In this document: positions 1 through 32,000 of the stretch, in pieces
Layout: every line of letters begins with the position of its first letter
Position numbering within the stretch: the stretch's first letter is position 1
Assembly (NCBI GenBank): GCA_004563595.2
Contig: CP042461.1
Span: 270,001-302,000, forward strand
Direction: 5' to 3'
Length of the DNA: 32,000 bases
Source: Candidatus Saccharimonadota bacterium
GTDB lineage: Bacteria > Patescibacteriota > Gracilibacteria > BD1-5 > UBA6164
Position numbers and translations under genes: made by a program
The notes under the pieces: model-generated
What the model saw: only the letters and a program-made list of their open reading frames with translations
What the model was told of the DNA's origin: nothing
Database searches by the model: none

Positions 1-2
1 CT

Positions 3-983
3 CAGTGAGACACCAGTTGTGAACTATCATCTCTGAGTAATACAAATAACACTTATGATTTCACATCTGAGATTTGATGAGTATGTGATGCAGGGATCAG
101 CAGCCAATGATACATTTGGAGGTTTTATAATGAAACTACTGGAGAAGAGATAAAAAAATATTGAGAGTACCTTGATAATTATAGATTTCTGAGTTCTTGA
201 ACTTGGAAAGTGTTTTTAAGGGTAGTTGATAACTGTGGGAATACTTGAGAAGTTTATAATATGTTGAGTATTGGACTCGATAATCAAGATAATAATACAT
301 GAGCTGAGAATAACACATGATCAGGTAGTGATATATGATCAGATAATAATTCGTTAAATGTAACGATAGATGTGAATCCTATATTCTGACCTGGTCCATT
401 AAATATAGATTTAGAATGATTGGTGTCATGATGAGAATGACCATATTCATATGAATGGAATTATTGAGATGGAGGTGGCTGATTTGGAGAAAATGTAAAT
501 TATATTTTCATAAATGAATGATCATATACCGTTATATTACAAGTAACTGATAAGGATTGAAAAATTTGATATGCCAGTGTTTGAATTCTTGTAAAAGATT
601 TAGGAGATATAAATACCGATAGTGATGGTGATGGAGTCAGTGATATTTTAGATAGTTGTCCACTTATCAACTGAGCACAAGAAAATAATGGTTGTCCAAT
701 CTTGGATACCATTTGTCAAAGTGATTCAAACTGTTCTTCTGGTTACTATTGTAAAGAGAGTAATAATAGCAAAAATATATGCGTTCCTAAAGAGGTTTCA
801 AATAGTTGTGTTTATGATTGATGAACAACGTTTTTCTGAAATGCTGTTTGTAATAGCTGTCCTTGTGGAAATTTCTTAGACTTCAATGCTTCATTGAGAA
901 ATTGTGATGTCATATTTCCAGCGATCACATCAAAGGATGGAACAGAAATCTACAGTAAATGAAAGAACTATTTAATAAAATAA
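3..983 (+). CDS. Secreted or surface protein, C-terminal part (5' end lies outside the window). Contains PKD-like repeats, a thrombospondin-type-3-like Ca-binding repeat and a Cys-rich tail.
   Basis: Frame 3 is open from nt 3 to TAA 981-983 only if more than 20 in-frame TGA are read as sense. Motifs seen: YEWNYGDGGGGFGENVNYIFINEGSYTVILQVTDKDG (PKD-like) and DSDGDGVSDILDSCP (TSP3-like). A hairpin terminator follows. Confidence 0.75.
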
Positions 984-1009
984 AAAAGATTCCTAATGGA
1001 ATCTTTTTT
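984..1009. terminator. Bidirectional intrinsic terminator shared by two convergent genes
   Basis: Stem aaaagattcc / ggaatctttt with loop taat, flanked by an A-run and a T-run. It overlaps the 3' end of the minus-strand CDS. Confidence 0.7.
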
Positions 1010-1721
1010 ATTTTCTAAAACTTTCTAATATTTCATGAGCAATTTGTTTTCAACCGAGTCAAAATGCAAGTCCTCAAGCGATAGTCAGCATTGATATGAA
1101 TCATACAAGAATAGTATTTATGATAAATGTATCAACTATTTTTGTATAGTTTAACACAAGCATAAGCGTAAAAAATAGGATTATTATTTTTGCACCACTG
1201 GCAATGATTCTACTTGTTTTTTGTTTGGTTAGGCTGAGAGTGTGATAGACAACATCATACACAAAGTTTGCAAATCTAATACCAAAGAATCAGATGATAA
1301 CTCAGATGAAAAGGCTCGGGAGGTATGCGAGTAAGTCTCATAGAAATACTTCTACTTCTTTGATTCAGATTACAATGATGGCAAACCTGAAGAATGCTAG
1401 GAATATATAGTATGAAATAGATCTTGCCGCGATTTCGTCTATTTTTACCTTTTGGCTGAGTTTTTTAGGAGCTGTTTTTTCTGACTCTTTTTTATCTTTA
1501 TCATGCTCTTCATCAAACTTGAGGGTGATTCTATCAATAATATCTAGTATATTAAATTTTTTGAAGAGATATTTTACAAATTTATGGATCGCAATTGATA
1601 TAAGGACTCAAAAGGCAAGTATGATCAGGGCTCATATAAATTTTGGGAGATAGAGCTCTATATTTCAGAGTATTACGGTGTAGAGGTTGTTTATTATTTT
1701 GTCTATATCAAAGTTAAACAT
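1008..1721 (-). CDS. Membrane protein with conserved TM-helix repeats (MscS-N-terminal-like). Function unknown.
   Basis: ATG at 1721-1719, TAA at 1010-1008, 237 aa in table 25 with several TGA=Gly. Hydrophobic segments present. C-terminal ...LAFGLGGKQIAHEILESF resembles the 'conserved TM helix' family. Confidence 0.7.
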
Positions 1722-1790
1722 AAGTATTTTCTTGAAAATATTAAGGTATATATACAGGATACCACAAAATCAAAAAAAGCAAAAATAAAT

Positions 1791-1818
1791 TTGACTAAAA
1801 ATCAATATTTCATATACT
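1791..1818 (+). promoter_or_regulatory. Sigma70-type promoter for the tRNA(UCA) gene
   Basis: TTGACT (1791-1796), 16-nt spacer, TATACT (1813-1818), about 55 nt upstream of the tRNA 5' end. Confidence 0.5.
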
Positions 1819-1874
1819 CACATCTGCAAATATTTGAGTGATTGCGTGTCGTTTTTACCAAAATATCTGTCTGA

Positions 1875-1953
1875 GCGAGGGTAACATAAAAGAGTGAGTG
1901 TACTAAGGCTTCAACCCTTGGGTGTGCGAGTTCAAACCTCGTCCCTCGCTCCA
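1875..1953 (+). tRNA. tRNA-Gly with anticodon UCA, the decoder of the reassigned UGA codon. CCA is encoded.
   Basis: Acceptor stem GCGAGGG/CCCTCGC. T arm GCGAG-TTCAAAC-CTCGT. Anticodon stem TAAGG/CCTTG with loop CTTCAAC (anticodon TCA at 1911-1913). Discriminator T at 1950, then CCA. G1:C72, C2:G71, G3:C70 and U73 match bacterial GlyRS identity elements. Short 5-nt variable loop. The D arm is atypical (no GG). Confidence 0.85.
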
Positions 1954-2034
1954 ATAAAAAATTTAAATCAAAAAAGCCTCTATTTAATTAAAAATAGAGG
2001 CTTTTTTGATTGTCAAAATTGAGTTCGATAATTC
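1950..2034 (+). repeat. Copy A of a repeated intergenic module (A-rich leader, terminator hairpin, GAT(T/G)GTTCA... tail). It starts at the tRNA 3' end (TCCA).
   Basis: TCCAATAAAA...AAAAAAGCCTCTATTT..AAATAGAGGCTTTTTTGATTG... aligns with copy B (3121-3222) from the first base. The hairpin and tail are also shared with 5878-5943 and partly with 2591-2645. Confidence 0.6.
1975..2007 (+). terminator. Intrinsic terminator after tRNA(UCA)
   Basis: agcctctattt / aaatagaggct hairpin followed by a T-run. Confidence 0.8.
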
Positions 2035-2127
2035 TGTTGAAATCTGAAATTATGAACTCATGCAATACACATGACTAAAAGATAAAAATGGGAAAGAAAT
2101 ATATGAAGGGATGATTAATTTTAGACA

Positions 2128-2155
2128 TAAAAAAATCTCCGTAAGTTATACGGAG
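2128..2155 (-). terminator. Intrinsic terminator (minus strand) overlapping the stop codon of the small membrane protein gene
   Basis: ctccgta / tacggag stem. The A-run at 2128-2135 is a T-run on the minus strand. Confidence 0.7.
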
Positions 2156-2765: not shown

Positions 2766-3104
2766 ATGAATAAAATATCTTGGGATGAATTTCAGAATGT
2801 TGAATTAAGAGTATGAACCATTATTGAAGTAAATGATTTTCCAGAAGCAAGAAAGGCTGCTTATAAATTAAAAATAGATTTTTGAGTAGATATTTGAATT
2901 AAAAAATCTAGTGCTCAAATTACTGATTTATACACAAAAGAAAACTTATTAAATAAACAGATAATTGGGGTAATAAATTTCCCTATAAAACAAATTGGTA
3001 CATTTATGTCTGAGTGCTTAGTAACATGATTTGTTAAAGGCGATTGAAATGTAGTATTAGCCGTACCTGATAGTGAAGTTATTAATTGAAGTAAATTAGC
3101 TTAA
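2766..3104 (+). CDS. tRNA-binding domain protein (CsaA/YgjH-like)
   Basis: 112 aa in table 25: [53 protein letters not shown]... This is the typical CsaA/YgjH N-terminal pattern. Seven in-frame TGA are read as Gly. Ends in TAA. Confidence 0.85.
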
Positions 3105-3382: not shown

Positions 3383-4636
3383 TTATGTTCATGAATATTT
3401 TCTTTCTTCAGGAACAAAGTTTTCAACTGTATCAATTGTCTTATTTAAGAGATATGACAATGGTACAGTCAGTAAAAAACCAATCTTCATTTGAGCCGCT
3501 ATTTCTAATGGGATTAACTCATTTGTTTGTGCTACTGAGACAAAAATTATTGCTACAGTACCGTTGCAGGCCCCGGCAATAGCCATGCTTAAAAGAGACA
3601 TTTTATTAAGTTTATTTTTACCGTAATCAGAGTTAGGATCTACATATCTTTGACAAATCAGGCCTCCAAAGTAAATACCAATTAGTTTTCCTCCAAAACC
3701 ACCAACAAGAGCTATGGTTGTAAATACTCCCCATGATAGAGGATCGAGTACATTAATACTCCCTGCTACAAGAGCAAATGGGAGTAATAGCCATAATGCA
3801 AGTGATTCTGTTTTTTCAATTACTAGCTGTTTAACATTATCAGGTGCAAAGATCATCGGAAGACACCCACCTAGAATTGGCTCAATACCATTAAAGCCTA
3901 GAAGGGATGTATTAAAGATGCAAAGAGTGACCCAGAAAGTCGGTGATTGAATAGTAACATCATATGTTTTTCGACCTATTATTTTATATGTTTTTTGATC
4001 TTTCTCTTCCTCTTCCTTGAGTTCTGTTACAATGACAGGACTAAATTTACCAAAAAAATAGGCAACCATCAGGACAAGCAAACCAGGAATAGAGAGGGTT
4101 TGTATCTGTTCTACTCCTTGAGAAAATAATCCAATCATGGAAATAATCCCTAGAAGATCATCACCAACAGCTAACATCGTTAGTGCACTTATCATTACAG
4201 TAGTTGATATATTTTTTGCCATTTTTGCTGAGCCTATTGCCATTGGTACATCAGTTGCCATACTTCCAGCAGATGCATATAATGCTACAGCTAATCCTAT
4301 ACCTCCTATAAAGTAAGCAAGAGAAGTTGTTAATATGAGAGGAACAATTACACCTCCTAATATAGTACCAATAATCAGAGGTCCAGCTTTTAAAATATCA
4401 TTAACTTCAATTTCAGCACCTAGTCGTAAGAAAAATACCCATAAGCCAGTAAGCATCATCCAAAAATGCACAGTTGGATGATGTATTACATGAGTGTATG
4501 TTTCTCCATACTCTCCAAAGAAACCATTTTCACTCAAGCCGTAAACGATGAGTGAAAAGATCAAAAAATAGATAATAACGGGTATCTTAGAGTCCAATAA
4601 TACAATCCCTTTTTTTTTGTCATTTGTATGTAACAT
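3383..4636 (-). CDS. Na+/H+ antiporter, NhaA-like (divergent). TGA-free, probably acquired.
   Basis: 415-aa standard-code ORF ending in TGA (3391-3389). In table 25 it gains two residues (G,T) and stops at TAA 3385-3383. NhaA-like motifs: FFLRLGAEIEVNDIL, SMATDVPMAIGS, VGDDLLGIISMIGLF. About 40 Gly codons, none of them TGA. SD GAGGGA upstream. Hand-counted stretches are G+C-richer than neighbouring genes. Confidence 0.75.
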
Positions 4637-11296: not shown

Positions 11297-11632
11297 ATGG
11301 CAAATAGTCACGGACTAAAATCAAACATTGTGAAGAAACAAGCGAAGGCGAGAAAATTAGCAAAGTGAAAAGTAAGAAAAGATCACGCTGCTTATATAGG
11401 AAATGAGAATCCACAAGTAAGGAAGAATCAATCTTATAAAGATAGAAATCATTACCTGGAAAATAAACAAAAATTCCCAAAGAAAAAACTGAAAACAAAG
11501 AATGTTGAGAGTTTGAAAGAACAAGGAATTTTAGATGAAAGAGGATTTTTTACAAAAGGGAAAAAGAAAAATTTTGAAACAAAGACAATGGTAGATTCAA
11601 AAGGCCTTGATTTTTATGGAATGCCAAGATAA
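11297..11632 (+). CDS. Highly basic Lys-rich small protein (111 aa), function unknown
   Basis: ATG 11297, TAA 11630-11632, one TGA=Gly. The track shows only an antisense artefact here. Confidence 0.55.
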
Positions 11633-11716: not shown

Positions 11717-12430
11717 ATGCAAAGATTTTATTTTCCTGATCTAGAAAAAGAAACTGATAGTGTTACTATAAAAAATAAAGATTTCATAAATCAACTTACA
11801 AAAGTACTCAGAGTAAGTGAATGATTTGAAATTATTTTTTTTAATGGAGAAGATCCGGTTGATAATATTTTTGAAGTTGCAAGTATTGATAAAAGAGAAA
11901 TATATTTAGAAAAAAAATCCGAAATAGAAAATGATTCAGAAATAGAGTTTGATCTTAATATTTTTGGGGCACTGCCAAATAAGATAGAAAAAATAGAGCA
12001 AATAGTTGCCAAATGAACTGAGGTATGAATTACTGGATTTTATTTTTTTAGAAGTGAAAGAAGTCAAAAATTGAATCTTTCAGAAAATAAAATAGCAAGA
12101 ATACAAAAAATTATCACTGAAGCAGCAGAGCAGTCGTGAAGATCAAGAATCCCCGAACTTATTATAGAAGATAATATCTCTTTGAGTGATTTCGCTGAAA
12201 ACGAAAATATATTTTTTCATACTGAAGCAAATGATTCACAGTCATTAAAAGAAATAAAACTTGATTATACAAAGTGATTAAATCTCTTTGTATGACCAGA
12301 ATGAGGTTGGTCAGATGATGAGATCTCACATTTTAAAAATATAGGTTTCAAGAAAGTTCACCTTTGAAATAGAATACTCAGAACAGAAACAACATGAGTA
12401 GTTGCATGATTCTATTTTATACAAAAATAA
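11717..12430 (+). CDS. rsmE: 16S rRNA (uracil1498-N3)-methyltransferase RsmE
   Basis: 237 aa in table 25. MQRFYF...HLTKVLRV-like N-terminus. C-terminal ...LFVGPEGGWSDDEI...LGNRILRTETTGVVA is the RsmE SPOUT signature. Several conserved Gly residues are encoded by TGA. Confidence 0.9.
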
Positions 12431-13696: not shown

Positions 13697-14281
13697 ATGA
13701 AATTTTGAAATGTAGAGTTCCATAAATCAGTATCACTTTGAAGTAAGTCAGTATTTTTTGATGAAAAATCAGAAATTGTCTTCATATGAAGATCAAATGT
13801 TTGAAAATCAAGCATTATGAATGCTATTTTTTGAAAAAAAGATCTTGTAAAAACAAGTGCAAGACCAGGGAAAACACAACTTGCAAATTTATTTCTTGTT
13901 TCTAAGAAGTATTATTTTACGGATTTACCATGATACGGTTTTGCAAGGTTATGAAAAGAATTTAAAGAAGCATTAGAAGGCTTGATTAGTTGGTATATTG
14001 AAGAAAAAAAGGATAATATTAAAAAAGTTATTATTCTTATTGATAGTAGATTATGAGCTCAGGAAATTGATATTGATATGTATAAATATATCTTAGATCT
14101 TGAACTTCCGGTAACAATAGTACTATCAAAGATTGATAAAATTAGCAAAAGTGAACTAGCAAAAACAATTGCACATACAAAAGAAGCTTTTTTCTGACAA
14201 GAGATTCTTGCTGTTTCTTCATTAAAGAAGCTATGAATGAGAGAATTAGAAAAAAGTATTACTCAATGTCTTATCGGTTAG
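13697..14281 (+). CDS. engB: Ribosome-biogenesis GTPase EngB (YsxC/YihA)
   Basis: G1 motif IGRSNVGKSS has both Gly encoded by TGA (13787-13789, 13802-13804). DLPGYGFA and SKID motifs present. 194 aa. Ends in TAG. Confidence 0.9.
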
Positions 14282-14305: not shown

Positions 14306-15418
14306 ATGTTTAAAAAAGAAACAGGCTCAATATGAAATATTTCACTGGTTTTGATAATATTTGTGGTATTCTTTTATGTACTTTATGTTGGTGCATCTTT
14401 AATCATACCATTTATCATAGCTCTTTTATTCTCATTTGCGATTATAGCACTTTCAAATTTTTATAAAAAAATGAGGTTGGGGTGATTTATAGCGTTTACT
14501 TTATCTCTTTGAACATATGTGTTCATTTTTTGGATATTATGAAAAATGTTGAATTCAAATCTTGGAGATTTAATTGAATTATTACCAAAATATCAAACAA
14601 AGGTTCTCTCTATTGTATGATCAGTATTTGAGCAATTGAATATAAATGAGCCAACCAGTATTAATCAGGTACTTCAAAAAATAGATTTACAATATATACT
14701 TTGATTAATTATCACATGAGTTACTTTTATTTTTAGTAAAACATGAATTATACTTTTTTATGTATTGTTTATATTACTTGAATATAGATATTTTAGTAAA
14801 AAATTACAACTGATGATTCTGGATGAATCAAGAAAAAAACAGATTTTTGAGATTTTAGAAAAAATAAAATGAGATATTAAGTCATATTTCGTGATTAAAA
14901 CTGTAGTAAGTTTTATTACGGCAACAGTGAGTTATATGATCATGAGAGTATTTGATCTTGATCTAGCTATATTTTGGGCATTTCTTATTTTTGTTCTTAA
15001 TTTCATACCAAGTGTCTGATCTGTTATCGCAGTTACTTTTCCAATACTGCTTACTCTCATGCAATTTGAAAGTTATTATCCGTTTGCGTTTATATCTGTA
15101 GGACTTATTGGAATACAAGTCCTTATGGGAAATATTATAGAGCCAAGATTTCTTTGAAATAAATTAAACCTCAGCCCTTTGGTTATCATTCTCTGATTAG
15201 CATTTTGGTGATCTCTTTGGTGAGTAGTGTGAATGCTTTTATCAGTCCCTATTATGGTTATTATAAATATCATACTGGCAAAAATACCAGCTACTCGTAG
15301 TATAGCTATATTACTCTCAGAAAAATGAGAGCTACAAATCGAAGCCCAAGAAGAAGTGAAAAAGAAGAGGAGAGTATTAATTGATGCTGTGAAAAAGAAA
15401 TTGAGAAAGAAAAAATAA
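14306..15418 (+). CDS. AI-2E family transporter (PerM/UPF0118)
   Basis: 370 aa, codon-by-codon check shows no TAA or TAG. NFIPSVGSVIAV.FP and [41 protein letters not shown] match the family signature. Confidence 0.85.
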
Positions 15419-15440: not shown

Positions 15441-16412
15441 ATGAAAAAAATACTTACATGAATTAAGCCAACGGGTTTAGGGATGCATATATGAAATTAT
15501 CTTTGAGCATTTAAACCTTTCTTAGAATTAGCTGAAGGAAAAGAGGCATATATGTTTATTCCAGACCTTCATTCATTGACATCAGTCCATGATGGAGAAA
15601 TATTGAGAAAAAATAAAGAGAGACTTCTCAAAGAATTCTTCGCTTTATTGCCAAATGATTCAAACATAACAGTTTTTGAGCAATCAAAAATAAAAAGAGT
15701 AAATGATATCACATGGATTCTTTCGAGTGTAACACCATACAGTCTTATGCTGAGAGCTCATAGCTTCAAAGATAGCAATAATAAAAATAGTGAGGTGAAT
15801 ATGGCAACATTTAACTACCCTATCTTGATGACTTCGGATATCATAAGTTATGATGTTGATTTAGTGCCTGTATGAAAAGATCAAGTGCAACATATGGAAT
15901 TTGTCAGGGATATTGCAGGAAATTTTAATAAAACATATAAACAAGATTTCTTTAAACTACCAGAATATAGCATAGATAAAAAATTGATGACTATTCCTGG
16001 AACAGATGGAAGAAAAATGAGTAAGTCATATGATAACTTTATTTGAATTTTTGATTCAGAAAAAGTTATGAAGAAAAAGGTTATGTCTATAGTCACTGAT
16101 GATACTCCACTTGAGGATCCAAAGGATCCAGAAACTTGTAATGTCTTTGCTTTGATTAAATTTTTTGCAAGTATTGAGAGACAAGATGATATAGCAGTAA
16201 AATACAAAGCAGGGAACTATGGATATGGTCATGCAAAACTTGAGCTTCTTGAAATTATTCTTGAATACTTCAAAGAAGCAAGAGAGAAGTTTGCAAGCTT
16301 TGCAAATGATATGACTTATATTAATGAAAAATTAAAAGAAGGGAACCAGAGATGAAATGAGATGGCTGATAAGAAATATGAGGAGTTAATAAAAATAGTA
16401 GGATTAAATTAA
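15441..16412 (+). CDS. trpS: Tryptophan--tRNA ligase
   Basis: TGIKPTGLGMHIGNY (HIGH-like motif, Gly=TGA at 15492-15494), GKDQ.QH and KMSKS motifs. 323 aa. It joins track ORFs 15552-15875 and 16068-16355. Confidence 0.92.
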
Positions 16413-16825: not shown

Positions 16826-19051
16826 ATGAACGGAATTTCAGATAAAAATGCAGCTTCTATGGTGAGTCTTAAAAAGACTTATGAAATTGCAGGGGAAAAG
16901 ATTACCTTAGAAACAGGAAAATTAGGACTTCTTATTAATGGTGCAGTAACTATTTCTGATACAAATGATAATATATTATTTGTAACAACTGGTTTCAAAA
17001 CAAAAGGACTCAATGCACAAGCAAGTTTTTTCCCACTGGTAGTTGATTATCAAGAAAAATTTTATGCAACTGGGAAAATTGGAGGAAATAGATTCCAAAG
17101 AAGAGAAGGTCGTCCAAGTGATGCTGCTACTCTTACTGCAAGACTTATAGATAGACCCATTAGACCAATGTTCCCAAAAGGGATTATTAATGATACACAA
17201 GTTATTTGTACTGTCTTATCATCAAACTGAGAAAAAGAACTTGGTTTTTGGGGGATAGTTTGAGCAAGTCTTGGTTTACAAATGGCAGGAGCTCCTTTTG
17301 GGGGGCCAGTTTCATCTTGTAATATAGCTGTAATGGATGATGGATCATATATCTTTAATCCAACAACGATTCAAGAATCTGAAGCCAAATTAAATCTGTT
17401 AACGGCATGAACAAAAGATGCTATTACTATGATTGAAGCAGGAGCAAAAGAAGTGAGTGATGAACTTATGTTAGAAGCTATAGAATATTCTCATAATATT
17501 CTCAAAGAAATTTGTGATGTACAAAAAGATTTTGTAGCTGAGTATGAAAAACAATTTGGGAAAATAGACCAAAAAGAAGCAAGTTTCAATCTTCCAGATG
17601 AAAGTTTGTATGATATAGCAAAAGAATTTTTATCAGAAGATAAACTGATATGTTTATATAATAAATCAAAAATAGACTTTCAAAATGAACTTGATAATTT
17701 AGATGTGATTTTAACAGATTTTTTAACTGAAAAATGACATATTGCAGGTGATGAAGCAAATGAAGAAGTAACTCAAATTAAAGCCTCTGAAGTAGGAAAT
17801 CTTGTTTATAAAAGAGTGAAGGAAATAATGAGAAAAAATATTCTAGAAAAATCTGAAAGATTAGATGGAAGAAAACCAAGAGAAGTAAGAGAAGTAGTAA
17901 GTGAAGTATGACTCCTTCCAAGAACACATGGATCAGCTCTTTTTAGAAGATGAATGACCCAATCATTATCAATAGCGACACTTGGTGGACCAGATGATGA
18001 AATGACACTTGATGGTATGATGCCAGCATGAACAAAAAGATATATTCACCACTATAATTTTCCACCATATTCAGTCTGAGAAGTGAGAATGATGAGAGGA
18101 GTTTGAAGAAGAGAAATTGGTCATGGAGCACTTGCTGAGAGAGCACTTGTACCAGTACTTCCTTCAGAGGAAGAATTCCCATATGTAGTGAGAGTAGTTT
18201 CAGAAATTACTACATGTAATGGGTCAAGTTCTATGGCTTCAATATGTGGTTCTACTTTGAGTCTTATGAATGCAGGAGTTCCTATTAAAACTCCGGTTTG
18301 AGGAGTTGCTATGGGGATGATATATGATGAAGAAACTTGAAAATATGTTATTTTATCTGATATCCAAGCTCAAGAAGATTTCTTATGAGATATGGATTTC
18401 AAAGTAGCAAGAACAAAAAATGGTATTACAGCTATGCAACTTGATGTAAAAATCAAATGACTCAAGTTAGATATTTTTAAAGAAGGTTTTGCTCAATCAA
18501 GTGAGGCAATTGAATACATTCTTGAGAGAATGTTATTGGCTCAACCAGAGGTAGCAACAGAACTTTCTAAATATGCACCTTTGATTATGAACATGCAAGT
18601 GAAAGAAAATGATATCAAGATCGTTATTTGAAAATGAGGTTCAAATGTTCAGAGAATGGAAAAAGATTATGGAGTAAGAATTTCAATTGCAGATGATGGG
18701 ATGACTACCATTACTGCAGAAAACCAAGAAGGTGGAAAAAAAGCTATTGCTGATATTGAAGCATTATTATGGAAACCAACAGAAGGAGAAAAATATGAAT
18801 GAGAAGTAGTGAAAATAATTGATGGGGTTTGAGCTATTGTGGCTTTCAAAAATACATCATGAATGATTCATATTTCAAAGCTTTCAGATACAAGAGTTAC
18901 AAATATTGAAGACGTAGTAAAGGCGTGAGATACTGTTAAATTTGAGGTTATTCAAGTTGATCTTGCAAAAGGAAGAATTGGGCTGAAAAGAATAGTTCCA
19001 GAATCTGAAAAACAAGCAGAAGCGAAAAAAGAAGATAAAACAGAAAAATAA
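16826..19051 (+). CDS. pnp: Polyribonucleotide nucleotidyltransferase (PNPase)
   Basis: 741 aa in table 25. Two RNase PH domains (FFPL.V.Y.EK.YA.GKI.GG..RREGRPS, ...RE.GHG.LAE.AL), a KH domain (IGKGGSNV, TGA at 18629-18631 and 18635-18637) and an S1 domain. It joins track ORFs 16826-17230 and 17429-17737. Ends in TAA. Confidence 0.95.
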
Positions 19052-19055
19052 GAAC

Positions 19056-19096
19056 TAAAAAAATAACCTAAAGCTCAGCTTTAGGTTATTTTTTTA
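19056..19096. terminator. Bidirectional terminator between pnp and the EAL gene
   Basis: ataacctaaagc / gctttaggttat hairpin flanked by an A-run and a T-run. Confidence 0.75.
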
Positions 19097-20023
19097 TTTT
19101 AATTCTATAATTTTTCAACGTTGGATTTGTATATTTTTTGAAGAGATTCAATTTTTTTCTTTGAGAAGTTCTCTTCATTGAAAACATGAACATCATATTT
19201 CTTGTGCTATTTGAATATCATGACGTGTATTTACCCATTCTGCAATAAGAATTGGAGGAATTTTAAATTCTTGTAATATTTGTATGAGCTCTTCTTTTCC
19301 TTCTATTACATCGTGATGATTTATTGGAAGATGTGATAAATATTGAAGGAAACCTCAATATATTTTAATATAATCAAGGGGGATTCAACGTTGTACTAAT
19401 TGTACTAATATTTCACAGCTATGGTTTTCATTATCATTTAAATGAAATCATTTAGAATTGAGTACAAGATCATCAAGAGCAATTTTATAGTGATTTTTCT
19501 TTAATAATTTTAGATTTTTTAAAATTTCCTCAGAGCGATTTATCCAACTATATTCTAGTATTTCGATAATAATATTTTCATGTGGAACTCAGGATTCTCT
19601 ACATTTTTTATTCAGGGTATAAATAAGGTCAGGGTGGGCTAAGTCCTCTGGGAATGTATTAATAGATACGATTTTTTTATTTTTTGAAAGTTTTATTTCT
19701 CATATCGCAATATTAATATTTTTTGAGAAAAGATGAAAAGTAAGTCACAAATCTCTTATATCTTGTAATATAAGTTGCATTTCATCTCATGTAATAGTTT
19801 CTCATGCATCATCAGTAGGGCGAAAAAGTACTTCATCAAATATTCTTCAGTTTTCTCAAAATACTGTTTCAGTATTATAATCAGCATCTTGAATGAGAGT
19901 AGATATAGTCTGCCTCTTACTTAATATCTTATTAACATTTCAAATTACAGGATTTCTATCTCAATAATTTGCATTTATTTGTTCTGGAATATATCAAGGA
20001 AGAGAGTCAAGGAAAGGAGGCAT
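19094..20023 (-). CDS. Stand-alone EAL-domain protein, partly degenerate
   Basis: 309 aa in table 25. EVLFR (EAL..R), SIN, EILE (ExxE), ALDD, IKI(Y), IAEWVN and FQG align with EAL-domain motifs. The D of K-x-D and the second E of EGVE are replaced. Confidence 0.7.
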
Positions 20024-20122: not shown

Positions 20123-20791
20123 TTATAATTCTAATATATATCATTTATTGATTTTAGTTTTGAGAGAAAAATCATCTCAAAGTTTTTTTCTTACTTTAGA
20201 TATTGTTACGTTTATAGTATTATCTGAAACTCATAGATAGCCATCTTCTCACCATATTTTTTGAATAAACTCATCTTTTTGAACAAGTTTTCATATATTT
20301 GATAAGAATAACTCCACAATAAGGTCTTCTGTTTTTGTAAGATGGATTTTCTTACCTCATACTTGGACTTCTTTTGAGTTTAGATTTAAACATATATTTT
20401 TATATTGAATATTTCAATTATATTTCAACATGGGGTTTCTTCTTGATAAGGCTTTTACTCTTGCTATAAGCTCTTCGGGTTGAAATGGCTTTGCGAGATA
20501 GTCATCTGCACCAAGGTCAAGTCAATACACTTTTTTTTCAGTATCATTATATCAAGACATGATAATAATAGGAGTAGAGCTATGTTTTTCGTTTCTTAAC
20601 CATTTAATGATCTCAAAACCACTCCCATCTCAAAGACAGAGATCTATAATATATAAATCACGCTCTTCATAATCATGGTTTATAAATTCCTGAAGCGAAT
20701 TATAGACTGTTACTCAGTATCCATTTTTTTCTAATTTTCTTTTTATTCTTGAAGCAAGTACTACTTCATCATCAATTATTGATATATTCAT
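20123..20791 (-). CDS. OmpR/PhoB-family response regulator
   Basis: Receiver domain (IIDDE, IIDL.LGDGSG, KPF) plus a winged-helix domain (LTKTE..L...L......V....I...W, ...V.ISKVRKKL). 222 aa. Confidence 0.88.
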
Positions 20792-22706: not shown

Positions 22707-24803
22707 ATGTCCATATTCATATTATTCCACATTATTTTTGTCAGTGCACTATTTTTATTGTGATTTTTTGTTTATAAAAAATATAGGCAGACAAGTGGGA
22801 TATTTTTCTTAAGCTTTTGTTTGCTTTTTTGAATTTGGTATATCCTCTATACAATCATCTATTCGGTACTTTTATGAGAATATTATACTCTCCATTTGAT
22901 GCGAATCATGTATGCAATGTCTTTTACTGCTATTTATAGCATGCTGTTTTTTGTATTATTTTTTAATGTAAATAAGAAAAAAACGAAGATAATTCGTAGG
23001 TGCATTGGTCTCTCCCTTTTTATGATATTTTTATATGTTTCAATGACATCTCTTTTTGTAGATCATATAGAGTATATTGAAAGTAAGGAATATTATTTGG
23101 AAGTCTATTGACCTTTATACAAAATACTAGCAACTTTATATCTTGCGTTTTTACCAATATTTTTTGTTGCATCTTATTACAAAATAAAATCTCTTACATA
23201 TATCAATAAAATGAGATTAAAATACATTTGTATTGGATTTACTTTATTTATGATTTTCTCTCTTTTATTTTTAATAATTTTTCCATTATTCTGAAAATTT
23301 TATTTTATTGAGAATATTATATTTTTTATAACCCCATTTATTGGTTTTACTTTTTATTCTACATATACGTATAGGTTCTCAGATGTAAAAGTTAAAATAG
23401 GGAGTATTTTAGTATTCTTATTGTCTGCTTTTTGGGCAATGGTAATGGTAAATTTAATAAATTATTTTTATAGTAATTTATGAGAAAATTATGCAGCACT
23501 ATGGGGACTTAACTCTAGTTTTTGAGCAGCTGAAGTATTATTAGGTATTCTTTTTTATATTCCATTAAATAAATATTTTAGTAATATTTTTTTAAAGAAT
23601 ATGAAAGGGGATAATTTTTGAAAAAGACTGTGAAGATTAAAAAAATCTATACCGTTTATTACAAACCTCTCAGATCTAAATTCATATTTATGAATAAAGT
23701 TATTAAAGTATTTTAGAATAAATAATGTAGAGGTAAAAATATTTAATAAAGATGAAAAGAAAAAGTCTGTAATATATAAATTTTTTTCCGAAAATACTTT
23801 AGATGATATTTTCCTCAATGAATTAGTGTTCATTGAGGAAAACAAACATAAGTTTAATTATTCTTTATTAAAAAATGAGATTGATGAAGGAGTTTTTTTG
23901 GTGTTCCCAATTTATGATAATAAGAAATGACTGATATGAATTTTTACACTTTGAAAGAAACCGTTTGGGGACTTATATTCTAATAATGAAATAAATCAAT
24001 TAAAGGAATTGATAGTATTTCTAGAAGGGCATTTAAAGTATATAAAAATTTATTGAAAAATAAATGATTTAACTGTGAATTTAGATAAAAAAATTGATGA
24101 GAAAACGATGGAATATAATAACCTTATCAATAAACAAAAAGAGTTTATTTCTATGATTTCTCATGAAATAAAATGACCGATAGCAAGTTCTATATTCCAG
24201 GCAGATTGTATACTTGATGATGTTGGGTCATGAGACTGTAGTAAAGAAGAACTTACAAAAGAGCTTACAATCTTAAATGAGCAACTTTTAAAATCATGAG
24301 ATTTAATTAACAAACTATTCTCTGTTCAATACTACGATTCAAATAGCTTTGACTTATTTAAAGAAGAGATTAATTTAGATTATTTATTTGAATGAGAAAT
24401 AGAAGTATACAAAAAACTGCATCCTCATATAGAATTTAGATTAGATATAGAAGAGGAGGTTTGATTTATCAGAATTGATAAAGTTCAGTTTAAACAAGTT
24501 ATTGATAATCTCCTTACTAATGCAGTAAAATTTATTACCCACGATAAGGGGAAAATTCATATAAACCTTTGCATGAAAAATAAGGAATTAATAGTTGAAA
24601 TTATGGATAATGGGAAAGGGTTTAAACACATAGATATAAGTACTATCTTTGATAAATATTCAACTTGAAAGACTTCTATGATTTGATTATGAATGGGACT
24701 ATATTTATGTAAAAGAATTGTGGAATTACATGGCGGTGAGATAAAAGCAAGTACGTCAAAAGAACTTTGATGAGCAAAATTTGAAATAAAGATACCAGTA
24801 TAG
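22707..24803 (+). CDS. Sensor histidine kinase with a multi-pass membrane N-terminus
   Basis: 698 aa in table 25. H-box FISMISHEIKGPIAS, N-box LLTNAVKF, G-boxes DNGKGF and GLGMGLYLCKRIVELHGGEI. Ends in TAG. Confidence 0.9.
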
Positions 24804-24816: not shown

Positions 24817-25527
24817 ATGAACAATATGAATATATTGATTATTGAAGATGATGTCTTTTTAGCTGCAAGATTAAAACAAGTTTTTGAAAAAAAAATTATA
24901 TCAAATAGAATAAAAATTGTAAATTCATATATAGATTTTATAGAAGAAATAAGTATTTTAAGTTCATATGATATTGTTCTTACTGATATAAAATTATGAA
25001 ATGAAAAACAAAAAAATTGAATCAATATAGTAGAAGTAATTCGTAGAAATCAAATCTCAATACCAATCATTGTTATGAGCTGCTTTTCAGATACGGATTG
25101 GATTGAAAGAGCATTTAATACCTGAGCAAATGACTATATAATAAAACCATTTCGATTAAAAGAATTAGAGCTCAGAGTGCAAAATTGGTTTAAAGCATAT
25201 TATATCCCATCACAGCAAAATACAGCTACAGTTCTGGAGTATTGAGGGCTATCATATAATATTGAAGTAAATGATTTTTTTTATTGAGAAGAAGTACTAG
25301 TACTGACAAAAAAGTCTAAATATATACTTTCTATCTTTTTTTCGAAACCCGATATTTTAATATCAGAGGATATCTTTATAGATAAAATATGGTGAGATGC
25401 ATTTTTAATAAAAGATAGAAACTTGCGAGTTTGTATGTTACGATTAAAAAGAGGATTGGAGCCATATTGAATCGATCATTGGATTATAAATATCAGATGA
25501 GAAGGTTATATTTTAAAAAAAACTTAA
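24817..25527 (+). CDS. OmpR/PhoB-family response regulator, cognate to the upstream kinase
   Basis: ILIIEDD, VLTDIKLG and KPF motifs, with a winged-helix C-terminal domain. The alternative start is ATG 24826. Ends in TAA at 25525-25527. Confidence 0.88.
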
Positions 25528-25613: not shown

Positions 25614-26162
25614 ATGTTAGAGAAAGAAATAAAGATATTAGATATAAATATTGATGAGGTGTGTAAAAAAATAGAAAAATTATGAGGTACCAGGACATTT
25701 GATGGAATTATACATGATGTATATTATGATTTTCCAAATGATGGAAAGAAACATAAGATGGAAGGGAATAAAAGAATGTTTAGAGTAAGGAAAAAATGAG
25801 AAACACATTTATATACTATAAAGAATAAGAGAAAAGATGTTGAAGAGGTAGAAAACGTTGTTGCAAAAGATGAACATGAAATGGAAATAACGGATGTTGA
25901 TAGTTTTACCGAAGTGTTAGAAAGATATGGAATGATCAAAACAAGGGAGAAAATAAAGTATAGAATCTCATATCAACTTGCTTGAGCAGAATTTGACATT
26001 GATAAATATGATGATATTCCTGCTATTCTTGAAATAGAAGAGGATAGTGATAAGAGTATAGAATTCTGGGTAAGAAGACTTGAACTGGATGCCTATGAAC
26101 AATTACTTGGATGATCAAGAAAATTATTTAAACATTATGGGGTTCCATATCTACATTTATAA
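25614..26162 (+). CDS. CYTH-domain protein (CyaB-type / triphosphate tunnel metalloenzyme)
   Basis: EKEIKILD (ExExK), ...MFRVRKKG..LYTIKNK..., KTREKIKYRI and AILEIEE follow the CYTH strand pattern. 182 aa. Confidence 0.8.
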
Positions 26163-26303: not shown

Positions 26304-27191
26304 ATGAATGCAGTACTAGAACGTCCACAACAAATAGCTGAGATAAAAATAAAAACAAATGAAATCATAGATTTAGCACCACAAATCTTGAGACAAAGAC
26401 TACGAATGGAAGGAAATTATTCTATTCAAGTTGATGGAGATACTGTTTCTAGGTATTTAAACAAATTATCAGAACTTTTAGGTATGGAGATTACTCATGG
26501 ACCTGAAATACAAAATGATGCGGAGATAATAAACCCTATTCATAAAGGTTTTGAAGGAATAATGATGATGTCTGGTGCAAGTACACATGCATATACTTGG
26601 GAATTAGGGAATTTCTTTTCCATTGATGTATATTCATGTAAATCATATGACATGTCGGCTATACTTGAATTCACAAAAATGTTTTTCGAAGTGACTCGGC
26701 TTCGATATCAACCAACGAATTCTCGTGATGGTACCAACAACTTGACTTTTGATAATAATCATGTAGAAAAAATGGCTAAATCAAATATATTTGATTTAGC
26801 CCCAAAAATATTGCGGCAACGGACACGAATAGAGGGAACATATGTAATTGATATTAGAAAAGATACTCTGAAAAAATATATGGTTGAATTATCTGAATTT
26901 TTAGGCATGCACATTACACATGGACCTGTTATTCAAAATGATGCAGAAATAGTCAGTAATCCAATACATGTAGGGTTTAAGGGTGTTATGATGTGGGCTG
27001 AGTCTGGTACACATGCATATACATGGGAGAAAGAAAAGTTTTTTTTAATTGATGTATATTCATGCAGCTTATATAATACTAAAATGGTGCTTGAATTTAC
27101 TAGAAACTTTTTTCAGGCTACCACAATTGGATATGAAGCAACGCATTCTCGTAATGGTCCAAATAATTTAACTATTATGCCTATTTCTTGA
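26304..27191 (+). CDS. Tandem-duplicated S-adenosylmethionine-decarboxylase-like (pyruvoyl-enzyme fold) protein. TGA-free, with a fossil TGA stop.
   Basis: 295-aa standard-code ORF. Two repeats (nt 26367-26747 and 26790-27173) share about 76 of 128 residues by hand alignment. Each carries THAYTWE....IDVYSC, which resembles ESH.(S/T)IHTWPE....(D)V(F/Y)TC of prokaryotic AdoMetDC. Glu-Ser is present only in repeat 2 (27000-27005). All 17 Gly codons are GGN. The TGA at 27189-27191 sits just before a terminator. Table 25 would extend the ORF to TAA 27261-27263. Confidence 0.6.
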   Translation: MNAVLERPQQIAEIKIKTNEIIDLAPQILRQRLRMEGNYSIQVDGDTVSRYLNKLSELLGMEITHGPEIQNDAEIINPIHKGFEGIMMMSGASTHAYTWELGNFFSIDVYSCKSYDMSAILEFTKMFFEVTRLRYQPTNSRDGTNNLTFDNNHVEKMAKSNIFDLAPKILRQRTRIEGTYVIDIRKDTLKKYMVELSEFLGMHITHGPVIQNDAEIVSNPIHVGFKGVMMWAESGTHAYTWEKEKFFLIDVYSCSLYNTKMVLEFTRNFFQATTIGYEATHSRNGPNNLTIMPIS

Positions 27192-27209
27192 ATTGCATAC
27201 ATGGAAAAC

Positions 27210-27246
27210 AAAAAAATACCTTACGTTTTAGTAAGGTATTTTTTTA
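27210..27246. terminator. Bidirectional terminator between the AdoMetDC-like and VTC genes
   Basis: ataccttac / gtaaggtat hairpin flanked by an A-run and a T-run. Confidence 0.75.
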
Positions 27247-28035
27247 TTTCATTTCATTTTTAATATTTTCAATTTCTTTCATTGTATCTTTAAATGTATT
27301 GTATTTTTTTGCAAGTCATGAATAGACGACTCAAAGCGAATACTTACTACAAGATTTTGCTTGTTTAAAACCATGTTTTTCCATTATCTCTAGACTTTTA
27401 CAGTTTGTTTCAAGAGATTTACTTTCGATAATTACAAGGTTTTTTAAATTTGTTTCTGATGCATCTTCATCTCTGAGATCAAGAGTCCTAATATCAAAAT
27501 CAATAGTAAGTCTTTCTCCTCATAATCTATCAACGAGGGTAATTCTTTTATATCTTGTTTTAATAGCAGGGAAGATCTTTGGAACCTTTACAGTACTATC
27601 ATACATACTTTGCCATACTCATTCGAAAAATCTTTTTTTTCATTTTGTCATTTTCCCGTGTTCATCACTTGGAAATTCATACCTATATTTACTTGTGATA
27701 CCATTTTCTTTTTGTTTATATTCAAAGAATGCAAGATCAGAATCTTTATAGAGTCTTGTTCTGACTTTTGTTCTTGCTTTTTGCTTATTTTCATGTTGAT
27801 TATAGAAAAAATAATCATCTGTATCCATATAAACATTATCGTATGAAAATACTTTTTTATCTACGATTTGCAAAACTTGAAAATTTTCTTTGAGTTCTTC
27901 TAACACTTCTGAAAATTGTTTTCAAGTGAGTAGAAATTTTCTATCAATTCTTTTTAAAAAGCTTGCTGACGCGTTTAATTCAGTCAGAGTGATAGATGAG
28001 AAATTATTTAATTTAGAGTCAAACGTTGTTGCCAT
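27244..28035 (-). CDS. VTC-domain (polyphosphate-polymerase-like, CYTH-superfamily) protein
   Basis: 263 aa in table 25. RIDRKFL, Y.N.YMDT, R.K.R.R.Y, EYK.K, RITL....ER.T.D, IIESK and SKYS follow the VTC/TTM strand pattern. It contains track ORF 27640-27906. Confidence 0.65.
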
Positions 28036-28139: not shown

Positions 28140-29516
28140 TTATATTTTCATAAGTATGAAGTACATTCCTGCTGATATTAATCATGAAACGGGGAGTGTA
28201 ATTATCCATGCAAGAGCTATATTTTTGATCATCGCTTTTTCTATATACTCTTTATCTTTTCCTTTTTGTCTCTTGATATGTTCTCTTAATAATCATACTC
28301 AGAAAATTCACCCAATTGCAATATGTGTTGAACTTACTGGAAGTCATAATTGACTTGCAATGAGTACAGTAACAGCAGCAGATAACGCTACACAAAAAGC
28401 TCTAATTTGGTTTAATTTTGTAATTTCTCAACCAACTGTTTTAATTAATCTTGCTCAGAATACACTGAGTCATACTACAATTCATAATGCTCAGAGAATC
28501 ATAATCCACTTTTCAACTGATGCCTTTGATCATTGAATATGTTCAATCCCATTTCAAAATATATCATTAATTGCTGCAAGTGGTCAGATCGCATTTGCCA
28601 CATCATTTGCTCCATGTGCAAATGAGAGAAGTGCTACTGAACAAATGAGAGGGACATTAAATAAAGTATTAATAAAACTTTTTGAATTTTTAAAGTAAGA
28701 GGATTGTTTTTTATAATGGAGAATAAGAGCTATATAGACAAGTATTCAGATAACGACTCAAGCAAATAATGCAAAACTTGGAGTGATTATATTCGCTAAA
28801 CTTTCATTTGATTTTAAGAGGGGTTTTAAACCTTTTATTAAAAGGTATATTGAGAAAATAGCTGACATAAGTCATACATATACTGGAACCCATATTTTTG
28901 CAGCATCTCATCTGGATTCTTTCTTGAGAATATTTCTTCTGATAGAGAGTAATAATATTGCTGCTATAGTTCATCAGAGAACAGGAGATATGACCCATGA
29001 TGCTGCAATTTTTCCTACTACAATCCAATTTACAATTCAAAAACCATAAGAAATTATTCAGGCTCATAGGAGTGCTCATATGATAGAGTGAGTTGCTGAT
29101 ACAGGAGCTTTAAAATAGGTAGCGATATTAAGCCAAACAGCAGCTCATAATAACGTAGATAACATGATAGCAACTAAATCCATTTGGTTTGTTATTTGAT
29201 CACCGTTAATGATTCATCCTTTGATAGTATCTACAACATCTCAACCAGCAATGATGGCTCCACTTGCTTCAAAGATAGCTGCGATAATAATTGCTCAAGT
29301 GAGAGTGATAGCTTTTGATCATACTGCGGGTCACATATTATTAGCAACGTCATTTGCTCATATATTTATTGCCATATATATTCATAATATAGCTGCAAAA
29401 AAGAGGTAAAAACTTGTATTTCCCCCTTCCATAATATATACCCATGCAATTGCTCACAGAAGAAACACTGCTGCGATGATATATTTATAAACCTCTTTTT
29501 TTTCCACATTAAACAT
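28140..29516 (-). CDS. PiT-family inorganic phosphate transporter
   Basis: 458 aa in table 25. Duplicated GANDVAN..GP signature, PVSATH/PVSSTH motifs and C-terminal IALAWIITLPVSGLISA. More than 30 TGA=Gly. Track ORFs here are antisense or off-frame. Confidence 0.9.
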
Positions 29517-29578
29517 TGGTTCCTGCTTTAAAAATTAAATAATACTTAATTATGGTATCATACTAAAAAAATAATGTA

Positions 29579-29606
29579 CAAAAAAACCAAGGATTTTACC
29601 TTGGCT
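29579..29606 (-). terminator. Intrinsic terminator (minus strand) after murG
   Basis: ccaagg / ccttgg hairpin. The A-run at 29579-29586 is a T-run on the minus strand. Confidence 0.6.
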
Positions 29607-29640
29607 ATTTTGTAATAATATTTATAAAATATAATAAATG

Positions 29641-30711
29641 TTATTTTTTATCTATGTGTTCTTCAATGACCTGTAGTGGTTTGAAAAAGTTTTCTAAATT
29701 GAGTCCTGATTTTCTGAGATCTTTAAATTTTTGAAGAAGTCTGAAAAGTTCTAGATCAAGGTTATTCTCTTCATCAAGAATATTGCTTCAGAATTCAGAA
29801 TGGAAATATTCAGCATTTTTTAATTGATGATTTCAGGCACTATTTTTGAGAGGTATAATAATTGAGTGAATTCAAAAACTATTAAGTTCCCAGAGAGTAG
29901 TTGCTCATCATCTTGTTATTGCTATATCTTTATTTTTTAAGATTTTTCATAACCTTTTTTGGGTGATAAAGTCATGGACAAGAATGTTTGGAAATTTTTT
30001 GAAATCATCCCTCATCCACATATTCTTTTCTCAAAGAACTATATTAAAGTTTATGTCTTGTAAATCAGGAAGAATTGTTAAGAGGGTCTTGAATATAGTT
30101 GTTGATCATTGACTTCCGGCTATTATCATCACTTCAAGCTTTTCATTCTCTTCTATTTCTAAATCATCAAGGTAATCTAGTAACTCAGGGTTTAAAATTT
30201 GTCAGGCTACAATATATTTTTTATTATCAATTTTTTTATTTGGGAAAGTATAAAACGTTTTTGTTGCAACTTTTCAGATAATTTTATTTGCAATTCATGC
30301 TGTCATATCAGACTCATGAACATATATTTTTTTCCTGAGAATAAATGCTGCAATACAAAGAGGAAGACTTACATAGCCTCATTTTGAGAATACAATATCT
30401 ATTTTATATTTTAATATATAGAATATTCAAAACACAATTCATGAGAGATTTTTTAATGGTTCATAAAAATTCCTCAGATCAAAGTATCTTCTTACTTTCC
30501 CCGCAGGTATACTGAGAAATTTTATTTTATTTTTTGATGCTATTTCTTCTTCTAACGAATCTTCTTCTCAAACCCAGAAAAAATTATATTTTCGTTCCTC
30601 GTTTAAATAATTATATGTTGATAATAATGGAAAAACATGACCTCAAGTTGAGCCTCAAGTAAGAGCAATAGTTTGTTTAGAATTCAGGGTTTTATCAATA
30701 TGAGTACTCAT
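29641..30711 (-). CDS. murG: UDP-GlcNAc:undecaprenyl-PP-MurNAc-pentapeptide GlcNAc transferase MurG
   Basis: LTGGSTGGHVFP (G-loop; TGA at 30655-30657 and 30643-30645), GGYVS.P, AGSQGS, TRGGATT..E and N.Q..NA motifs. 356 aa. Confidence 0.9.
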
Positions 30712-30713
30712 GT

Positions 30714-31301
30714 TTAAAGTTTTATGTAATGTAATATTTTTATAATAAGCTTATTCAGTGATTTTACAAATTTTTGTTCTTTTAATAAATCTGTCATAAT
30801 GAAACTTGATATAAATCAAACCAAAATTCATCAAATAATATCAAATGGCCAATGGACTCATGCAATTATTCTAGAAATATTCATTAACAGAACAAATGGA
30901 AAAAATATGAGTCAGATCTTTTTATAACCTGCAAAGAATAATGAAAAAAGAAAAGCAAAGCTTACGGCTGCATGGTCTGAGGGGAAACTTGCATCAGGGA
31001 CATGGGAAAGTAATAACTTTCATACTCATTTTATAGCTTCTTCGGGTCTATCAAAAATGACTATTTGTTGAATAATCAGATTCATGATAATAGCAAGAAC
31101 AACAGAATAAAATATATTTAGTAACATTTCCTTTTTTTCATGTTGAGAATTAAAGTTATAAAAAATCCATGTAGATACTAAGAAGATTGGAAGGAAAAAT
31201 ATAGGAGCATCCGCAAAAATTCAAACCATAGATTCTATATTTGAATTTGAATTGAGAGAGTTCAGAAAAACAAGAAGGTCCTCATTAAATTTTTGTAACA
31301 T
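30714..31301 (-). CDS. PAP2-family phosphatase (undecaprenyl-diphosphatase BcrC-like)
   Basis: KxxxxxxRP-like motif, SFPSDHA and SRIIAGVHWPFD motifs. 195 aa. Its stop lies 2 nt upstream of the murG ATG, so they form an operon. Confidence 0.85.
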
Positions 31302-31451
31302 ATTTTAAGTTTATTTTAAGGTATTAAATTATACTAAAAGTCATTTTTAACAATTTAGCGTATTTCGTAAAATAATCAAGAAAAAACTTTCTATTTTATT
31401 AAAAAGCTTTATACTGAAGGGGACTTATTTTTTTATTACATTTTTTACTCT

Positions 31452-32000
31452 ATGTCCGATTATACTCCTTTAAAGTGAACAAAAGATTTATTTCCAGATG
31501 ATCATAAATACCTAACTTTCTTAAAGAAAGTTTTTCGTCATGAATTTCGTAAAAACTGATTTAGAAGAATTACCACTTCAGTACTTGAAAGTAATGAAAT
31601 TATAGGTGATGTTTTTTGAGAAAATACTGGAGGAATTTATAAAACAGAAGATGGATGTTTAAGATCTCATTCAGCAGTATGAATATTAAGAGCATATTTG
31701 AATGCAGAAATGAGTGAGGAGATTCAACCAGTATATTATTACTTTATGGATAATTATTTCTCAAATGGGGAAATGTGATATAATGAACTAGAAAAAATTG
31801 GTTGAGAAATAATCTGAGAAAATGATCCTATACTCGATGCCATTCTTATATATATTACTTATAGTATATTAAATAAAATTGGACTAGAAAATGATTTCAC
31901 TATCAGGATAAATTCTATTTGAATTGAAAAAGAAAAAGTAAAATATAGAGAAGAACTTATTTCTTTTTATGAAAATAAAAAACATTTATTATCAGAGAAA
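31452..32000 (+). CDS. hisS: Histidine--tRNA ligase, N-terminal part (3' end lies outside the window)
   Basis: MSDYTPLKGTKDLFPDD (KGTxD, Gly=TGA at 31476-31478), then ...FRRITTSVLE (motif 1 region) and LRSHSAVGILRAY (class II HisRS pattern). Confidence 0.85.

Follow-up and report, generated by a model that had tools for sequence, protein, structure and literature searches.

Background

The UGA stop codon is known to have been reassigned to glycine (genetic code 25) in two bacterial lineages, the Gracilibacteria (BD1-5) and the Absconditabacteria (SR1) (Campbell et al. 2013 and Rinke et al. 2013, as cited in PMC6851277, PMC3812714 and PMC8629427). In SR1 the mechanism is an additional tRNA-Gly with the anticodon UCA, not wobble (Kantor et al., PMC3812714). 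Proteomic validation has been reported from a BD1-5 organism (Hanke et al. 2014, PMC4032931, as cited in PMC6851277). Here we describe 32,000 nucleotides of the GenBank record CP042461 (hereafter the window, meaning this whole stretch), in which UGA is read as glycine, and a tRNA gene within it, tRNA(UCA), which is the candidate decoder of that codon.

CP042461 is the closed genome of Candidatus Gracilibacteria bacterium 28_42_T64 (1.343 Mb, 28.87% G + C, 42x), described by Sieber et al. 2019 (mBio, PMC6851277). According to that paper, the genes were called with Prodigal -g 25, i.e. in code 25, and prfA was present, while prfB, the gene for release factor 2 (RF2), was undetected. In its passages searched on the subject, nothing is said of the tRNA(UCA) gene, of the insertion that adjoins it or of the TGA-poor genes described below. 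The glycine meaning of UGA is already known, both for the lineage (since 2013) and for this exact sequence (2019, code 25).

In all essentials the window is like the described code 25 systems of BD1-5 and SR1: it has TGA at conserved glycines and a tRNA(UCA) with glycine identity elements, and shares with them the use of TAA and TAG as the sole stops, a low G + C content and the reported absence of prfB. No essential differences were found; in the tRNA of the window the anticodon stem is of 6 bp and conserved, and the D-loop lacks the usual GG. The code 4 of Mycoplasmatales, Entomoplasmatales and some insect endosymbionts also has UGA as a sense codon, loss of RF2, AT-richness and a tRNA with the anticodon UCA. 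However, the amino acid is tryptophan there and glycine here, and the tRNA is a derivative of tRNA-Trp there and, as far as its identity elements tell, a separate glycine-type acceptor here.

We consider it nearly certain (probability about 0.97) that the window belongs to the published 28_42_T64 genome, written in code 25, in which UGA is read as glycine by means of the tRNA(UCA) at 1875-1953.

Results

Source of the sequence

Translated with table 25, three proteins of the window were identical to deposited sequences: the polynucleotide phosphorylase (PNPase, P0001), an antiporter-like membrane protein (P0121, locus tag A9Q91_01360) and an AdoMet-decarboxylase-like protein (P0140). The PNPase matched the NCBI polyribonucleotide nucleotidyltransferase of 28_42_T64 at 741 of 741 residues, and two of the three proteins (PNPase and the antiporter-like protein) carry the organism name Candidatus Gracilibacteria bacterium 28_42_T64 at NCBI. 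In addition, JGI scaffold Ga0239576_1000025 (metagenome, sample 3300030037) was 100% identical to positions 16304-32000 of the window, over 15,697 nt. The nearest PNPase loci were those of metagenome-assembled genomes of Gracilibacteria and Patescibacteria, likewise with TGA as a sense codon.

An earlier note on the window, made from its letters without database searches, had proposed an origin in a lineage of the Gracilibacteria type. The identity with the proteins of 28_42_T64, together with the TGA-sense nearest relatives, bears this out and places the window in the recoded clade of Gracilibacteria and Absconditabacteria. The best 120 PNPase database matches listed had at least 62% identity and all named ones were Gracilibacteria, which does not make them independent evidence. 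Loci of Escherichia coli and PNPase loci of standard-code genomes were used in their place to determine the meaning of TGA.

Reading frames under different codes

The G + C content of the window was 28.3%. In the standard code it contained 21 stop-to-stop open reading frames (ORFs) of at least 100 aa, with 2,889 aa in total and a longest ORF of 418 aa, covering about 27% of the window. With TGA as a sense codon there were 73 such ORFs with a total of 14,310 aa, the longest being 767 aa; a control in which TAG was taken as sense gave 3,909 aa. The earlier description of a window with few long ORFs in the standard code, and with back-to-back ORFs on reading through TGA, was therefore correct on both counts, the latter ORFs being contiguous genes with full-length Pfam and NCBIfam matches.

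A gene set was made from the non-overlapping long ORFs, and TGA was masked as X for the Pfam scan. PHO4 was matched at 3-350 of 350 across 32 TGAs, tRNA-synt_1b (class-I W/Y synthetase) at 7-291 of 292, and all five PNPase domains and both MurG domains were found. Families matched end to end also included the AI-2E transporter, RsmE, two OmpR-type regulators, a histidine kinase, EAL, CYTH, VTC, PAP2, MerR and a CsaA-like tRNA-binding protein. The table-25 translations of YihA/YsxC (EngB), TrpS and the tRNA-binding protein passed the NCBIfam equivalog cut-offs (scores in Table 1). A comparison of the coding sequences with protein families had been proposed as a check on code 25, and for PNPase, TrpRS, MurG, EngB and the PiT transporter it yielded full-length matches.

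Across 33 genes there were 325 in-frame TGAs. The chosen genes stopped at TAA (28) or TAG (4), as had been claimed, the absence of TGA stops being by construction once TGA is taken as sense. The ends of the ORFs agreed with the gene calls of an independent annotation.

The amino acid encoded by TGA

Reference sequences in the standard code were murG, pnp, trpS, pitA, yihA, rsmE, hisS and phoBR of E. coli K-12 and about 60 PNPase loci from GTDB genomes, and the reference residue opposite each codon of the window was tallied by tblastn. TGA was opposite glycine at 56% of 86 aligned positions, opposite alanine at 11% and opposite tryptophan at 1%. Glycine was found at similar rates opposite GGA (63% of 34 positions), GGT (68% of 26), GGG (58% of 24) and GGC (60% of 5), and TGG was opposite tryptophan at 43% of 14 positions. 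All other well-sampled codons kept their standard meaning. The earlier note had named TGA columns filled mostly by tryptophan as the outcome that would contradict it; the columns were filled mostly by glycine.

For PNPase, 12 of the 19 TGAs were in columns that are glycine in 19-22 of 22 standard-code references, and none of the 19 was in a tryptophan column. Pairwise alignment to the E. coli orthologues covered 102 TGA positions, opposite 51 glycines, 15 alanines and 1 tryptophan. It confirmed the glycines of the EngB P-loop, the PNPase KH motif and G-ASLGL, and the H-I-G-N motif of TrpRS. Four further TGAs of TrpRS were opposite glycine in E. coli TrpS. The K-X-T-K-D of HisRS (X being TGA) aligned with R-G-T-Q-D of Staphylococcus aureus HisRS (PDB 1qe0).

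Nine positions in these motifs and in MurG had been listed in the earlier note as TGA-encoded glycines of unrelated families, and all nine are in-frame TGAs in the contexts described (Table 1). As for the two in MurG, the reading frame was confirmed; the codon at 30655-30657, however, is opposite alanine in E. coli MurG, and the glycine loop of the window protein has one extra residue, which makes the alignment ambiguous at this point. The PiT signature with TGA was also present as claimed, in two copies. The first reads X-ANDVAN-NM-X-P, with TGA at 29358-29360 and 29331-29333, and the second G-ANDVAN-AI-X-P, with GGA at 28611-28613 and TGA at 28584-28586, so that the first glycine of the signature is TGA in one copy and GGA in the other.

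The same exchange was seen between genomes. Seventeen loci of relatives (L010-L026) were compared, 13 of which (L010-L022) were TGA-sense. At 857 positions with TGA in the window, the codon of the relative was TGA 300 times, GGA 147, GGT 110, GGG 42 and GGC 15 times. Opposite GGA, GGT and GGG of the window, TGA was about as frequent as GGN, and TGG was opposite TGG in 93 of 127 cases.

In the gene set of 9,088 codons TGA occurred 325 times (3.6%) and GGN 314 times. The glycine content was a normal 7.0% with TGA and only 3.5% without it. These three lines of evidence (references, codons of relatives and composition) are independent of existing annotation. The reassignment to glycine put forward in the earlier note is thus upheld by the alignment to glycine, by the exchange with GGN in relatives and by the identity of the table-25 proteins to deposited ones.

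The candidate decoder, tRNA(UCA)

The most direct evidence in the window is a tRNA gene with the anticodon UCA, which the earlier note had passed over. It was found by ARAGORN, whose label 'SeC' derives from the anticodon alone. Searched with Rfam at the gathering cut-offs, the entire window gave no match, the tRNA included, whereas a local run judged by E-value gave 45.4 bits (gathering 29). As the tRNA was missed in the whole-window run, a negative result of that run is no proof of absence.

The predicted tRNA has a 7-bp acceptor stem, a 6-bp anticodon stem, a 4-nt variable loop, a 5-bp T stem and a D-loop of 10 nt without the usual adjacent GG. The acceptor stem has G1:C72, C2:G71 and G3:C70, with discriminator base U73, followed by an encoded CCA. 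The three pairs and U73 are the four features by which Shulgina and Eddy (PMC8629427) assigned glycine to tRNA-UCA genes in Gracilibacteria and Absconditabacteria, and the tRNA at 1875-1953 has all four.

Orthologues were sought in metagenome contigs by means of a pattern in which the anticodon loop and the T arm alone were specified and the acceptor stem was free. This gave 18 orthologues, on contigs of 18-38% G + C, and all 10 contigs checked (at least 3.5 kb) were TGA-sense. G1:C72, C2:G71, G3:C70, U73 and CCA were invariant in 18 of 18. Among 7 distinct sequences the cloverleaf was 100% paired, and the variable sites outside the D-loop were confined to two compensatory pairs, A4:U69/G4:C69 and C:G/U:A. 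The latter is the outermost pair of the anticodon stem, with U:A in place of C:G in 2 orthologues. The structure rests on the covariance model and on this covariation.

One of these contigs (L110) carried a canonical tRNA-Gly(UCC) with the same acceptor end, GCGGG...CCCGC-U-CCA, as tRNA(UCA). Its anticodon stem is of the normal 5 bp, as opposed to the conserved 6 bp of tRNA(UCA). Speculatively, the 6-bp stem might tune the discrimination between UGA (glycine) and UGG (tryptophan). The T arm was considered as a sign of an origin from tRNA-Gly and rejected, as tRNA-Glu, tRNA-Asp and further tRNAs share it.

From these identity elements we infer that the gene encodes a tRNA-Gly(UCA), the decoder of UGA. 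In the proposed mechanism, UGA would be read as glycine by this dedicated tRNA and not as a stop. The tRNA would presumably be charged by the glycyl-tRNA synthetase, since it has the elements of acceptor stem and discriminator base that the bacterial enzyme recognises. Termination takes place at UAA and UAG alone, both read by release factor 1, and RF2, the competitor at UGA, is absent from the genome according to the literature on it.

Alternative explanations

Some points weigh against the glycine reading. About 44% of the TGA positions in the tblastn tally were not opposite glycine; this rate is the same for the GGN codons, which indicates variable positions and not a different meaning. Folding of the single tRNA(UCA) sequence by minimum free energy gave no cloverleaf (z = -1.48). 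The loss of RF2 is taken from the report on the genome in PMC6851277, and the peptide proof, likewise from the literature, belongs to another BD1-5 organism than 28_42_T64.

The low G + C content (28%) and the long TGA-sense ORFs would fit equally well with code 4, the code of Mycoplasma and several insect endosymbionts, in which UGA is tryptophan, and many public metagenome proteins of relatives do have W at the TGA columns of the window (285 of 1,140 cells). The earlier note had set code 4 aside on the ground that tryptophan is still encoded by TGG, but this argument is invalid, since organisms with code 4 keep TGG as tryptophan too. What makes code 4 very improbable is that about 1 of 86 TGA positions is opposite tryptophan as against 56% opposite glycine, that TGA exchanges with GGN and not with TGG in relatives, that the tRNA has U73 and G1:C72 and not the G73 of the tryptophan type, and that the tryptophan content would reach an implausible 4.2%. 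Selenocysteine, suggested by the anticodon UCA and by the name tRNA-SeC that ARAGORN gives, has a negligible chance: TGA makes up 3.6% of all codons and was opposite glycine, not cysteine (0.1 of 86), and the tRNA matches the general Rfam tRNA model, its acceptor stem being of 7 bp and its variable loop of 4 nt where bacterial tRNA-Sec has 8 bp and a long extra arm.

It is conceivable, with a slim chance, that UGA, though mostly glycine, has remained a stop or leaky stop in some genes. The sole TGA of the antiporter-like gene and that of the AdoMet-decarboxylase-like gene sit where the homologues or the domain end. Against this, neighbouring genes contain hundreds of TGAs that are read through, PMC6851277 reports the genome to be without prfB, and the public annotation reads through both genes (P0121, 417 aa; P0140, 319 aa). 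With prfB reported missing, it is unlikely that UGA still terminates translation in a few genes. That nearly all genes are broken in the standard code could also mean pseudogenised or mis-assembled DNA, with the TGAs as true stops in dead genes. Such an origin is as negligible as selenocysteine, because genes with as many as 32 TGAs stay in frame and match their families over the full length, TGA is conserved or swapped for GGN in independent assemblies, and the identical sequence was recovered in an independent metagenome assembly.

An insertion next to the tRNA

The gene next to tRNA(UCA), no more than about 30-130 nt downstream of it, is a homologue of that for the small basic protein 'MANSHG...' in 12 of 13 related contigs inspected, and rsmE comes after it. 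A lineage-specific insertion lies between tRNA(UCA) and the 'MANSHG' gene in the window (Table 1). The share of TGA among the glycine codons was 25% in the insertion versus 59% outside it (Fisher p = 2e-12). Searches of the 9.3-kb insertion with Pfam and PHROGs found no integrase, phage or attachment-site signals, and no repeat of the 3' end of the tRNA was seen at the far boundary. Neither were diversity-generating or hypervariable repeats, such as those described in PMC6851277, found in the window.

A terminator-like hairpin (AAAAAAGCCTCTATTT...AAATAGAGGCTTTTTT) stands just 3' of the tRNA and recurs in the insertion. The three copies each follow a gene, and all are inside the insertion, less than 4 kb from the tRNA. 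Duplication of an insertion target is one possible origin, and a terminator repeated locally is another.

Within the insertion, about 0.9 kb (8552-9446) had no convincing ORF in either code. G + C-rich hairpins with runs of T or A were seen near 8679-8706, 9066-9100 and 9378-9405, and an Rfam search of 8400-9600 found nothing. Small RNAs or remnants of genes could lie here.

TGA-poor genes

The strongest TGA-poor outlier in the insertion was the antiporter-like gene, in which a single TGA (3389-3391), two codons before the TAA, stands against 40 GGN codons. It also has the highest G + C content among the genes of the window (35%). Its homologues are 40-57% identical, and some are in standard-code Gram-negative genomes beside BamA, LptM and ZipA. 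The loci of homologues compared were L210, L211 and L213. On the last of these, a TGA-sense contig, the gene has 48% G + C versus 37% for the contig, and one TGA near the C-terminus. The TGA at 3389-3391 is probably a former stop that is now read through for 2 codons, and the gene appears to have been acquired recently from a Gram-negative donor that uses the standard code.

The AdoMet-decarboxylase-like gene has 18 GGN codons and one TGA. Read-through of this TGA extends it by 23 codons, into the 3' end of the VTC gene. Three of the four CGG codons of the window are also in this gene. In two relatives (L010 and L012) its slot is occupied by a different gene, for a membrane protein. The protein database contained two homologues, both short, and no donor was identified from them. 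Here too, the single TGA is probably a former stop, read through for 23 codons.

In both cases the TGA-poor gene seems to have come from a standard-code donor and to have kept its original TGA stop, which is now translated. A wider scheme, in which the tRNA-Gly(UCA) gene is a hot-spot for insertion, the insert is depleted in TGA, and the antiporter-like and AdoMet-decarboxylase-like genes were imported with their stops read through, is offered tentatively; taken as a whole we hold it to be possible but rather doubtful.

CGG codons, public annotations and scope within the clade

Shulgina and Eddy (PMC8629427) predicted CGG as tryptophan in some Gracilibacteria. The only CGG in a native-looking gene of the window is at 22058-22060 (codon 110 of the ORF 21728-22597, plus strand). 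At this one position, in alignments of low identity, the relatives have TGG (L011) or TAT (L010, L012 and L015). CGG codons of the relatives were mostly opposite AGA or AAA in the window. Comparison with the standard-code references gave too few positions for CGA (n = 3) and CGG (n = 0).

The W residues at TGA columns of the window that were counted above occur in the PNPase alignment, in public metagenome-derived proteins of relatives (P0002-P0060 and P0122). These proteins were evidently translated with code 4 instead of code 25.

Four loci labelled 'Candidatus Gracilibacteria' or 'Peribacteria' (L023-L026), with 38-50% G + C, have long ORFs in the standard code. They have GGN at the TGA positions of the window. 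The reassignment of UGA is therefore not common to all bacteria so named, in agreement with PMC8629427.

Other genes in the window

The coordinates of the features discussed above and of the other genes are given in Table 1.

Table 1. Features of the window, by position. Unless another basis is named, assignments are from Pfam scans of translations with TGA masked; an indented line gives the TGA codons of a motif in the gene above it.
Feature	Position	Strand	In-frame TGA	Basis and remarks
PKD-domain surface protein	3..983	+	26	5' end cut by window
Membrane protein, mechanosensitive-channel helix motif	1008..1823	-		Next to tRNA, position conserved in relatives
tRNA, anticodon UCA	1875-1953	+		ARAGORN; Rfam tRNA RF00005, 45.4 bits
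Lineage-specific insertion, ~9.3 kb	1960-11280			Between tRNA(UCA) and 'MANSHG' gene
Terminator-like hairpin just 3' of tRNA	1967..2011			Near-identical copies 3140-3178, 5875-5919; repeat families D2, D3, I2, I3
CsaA-like tRNA-binding protein	2766..3104	+	6	Pfam tRNA_bind; NCBIfam NF007493 171.1, cutoff 160
Cation/proton antiporter-like membrane protein	3383..4636	-	1	NCBI A9Q91_01360, 417 aa
Small basic protein 'MANSHG...'	11297..11632	+		Directly after tRNA in 12 of 13 related contigs
RsmE-type 16S rRNA methyltransferase	11717..12430	+	10	
YihA/YsxC (EngB) GTPase	13697..14281	+		TIGR03598 178.5, cutoff 124.45; both P-loop glycines (G-RSNV-G-KS) TGA
 EngB P-loop	13787-13789, 13802-13804			
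AI-2E family transporter	14306..15418	+	16	
Tryptophan-tRNA ligase (TrpRS)	15441..16412	+		TIGR00233 252.1, cutoff 176.75
 TrpRS H-I-G-N	15492-15494			
Polynucleotide phosphorylase (PNPase)	16826..19051	+	19	741 aa
 PNPase G-ASLGL	17261-17263			
 PNPase KH motif	18629-18631, 18635-18637			
EAL-domain protein	19094..20023	-	17	
OmpR-type response regulator	20123..20791	-		
Membrane histidine kinase	22707..24803	+	24	
OmpR-type response regulator	24817..25527	+		
CYTH-domain protein	25614..26162	+		
Tandem AdoMet-decarboxylase-like protein	26304..27263	+	1	P0140, 319 aa
VTC-domain protein	27244..28035	-		
PiT/PHO4 phosphate transporter	28140..29516	-	32	Two GANDVAN signatures
MurG glycosyltransferase	29641..30711	-	17	
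 MurG G-G-S-T-G-G-H	30655-30657, 30643-30645	-		
PAP2 phosphatase	30714..31301	-		
Histidine-tRNA ligase (HisRS), N-terminal part	31452..32000	+		Alignment with S. aureus HisRS; cut by window end
 HisRS K-X-T-K-D	31476-31478			

Conclusions

The choice of code governs all annotation in the window: table 11 fragments the genes, and table 4, evidently the choice of many public pipelines for relatives, would turn about 325 glycines of the window into tryptophans. For this clade, public protein collections contain a systematic error of glycine to tryptophan. The TGA-poor insertion, the read-through stops and the unusual anticodon stem of tRNA(UCA) could be of modest interest for the exchange of genes between recoded and standard-code genomes. 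If the import of the two TGA-poor genes is true, it would mean that genes flow across the boundary between genetic codes, at the immediate cost of C-terminal extensions.

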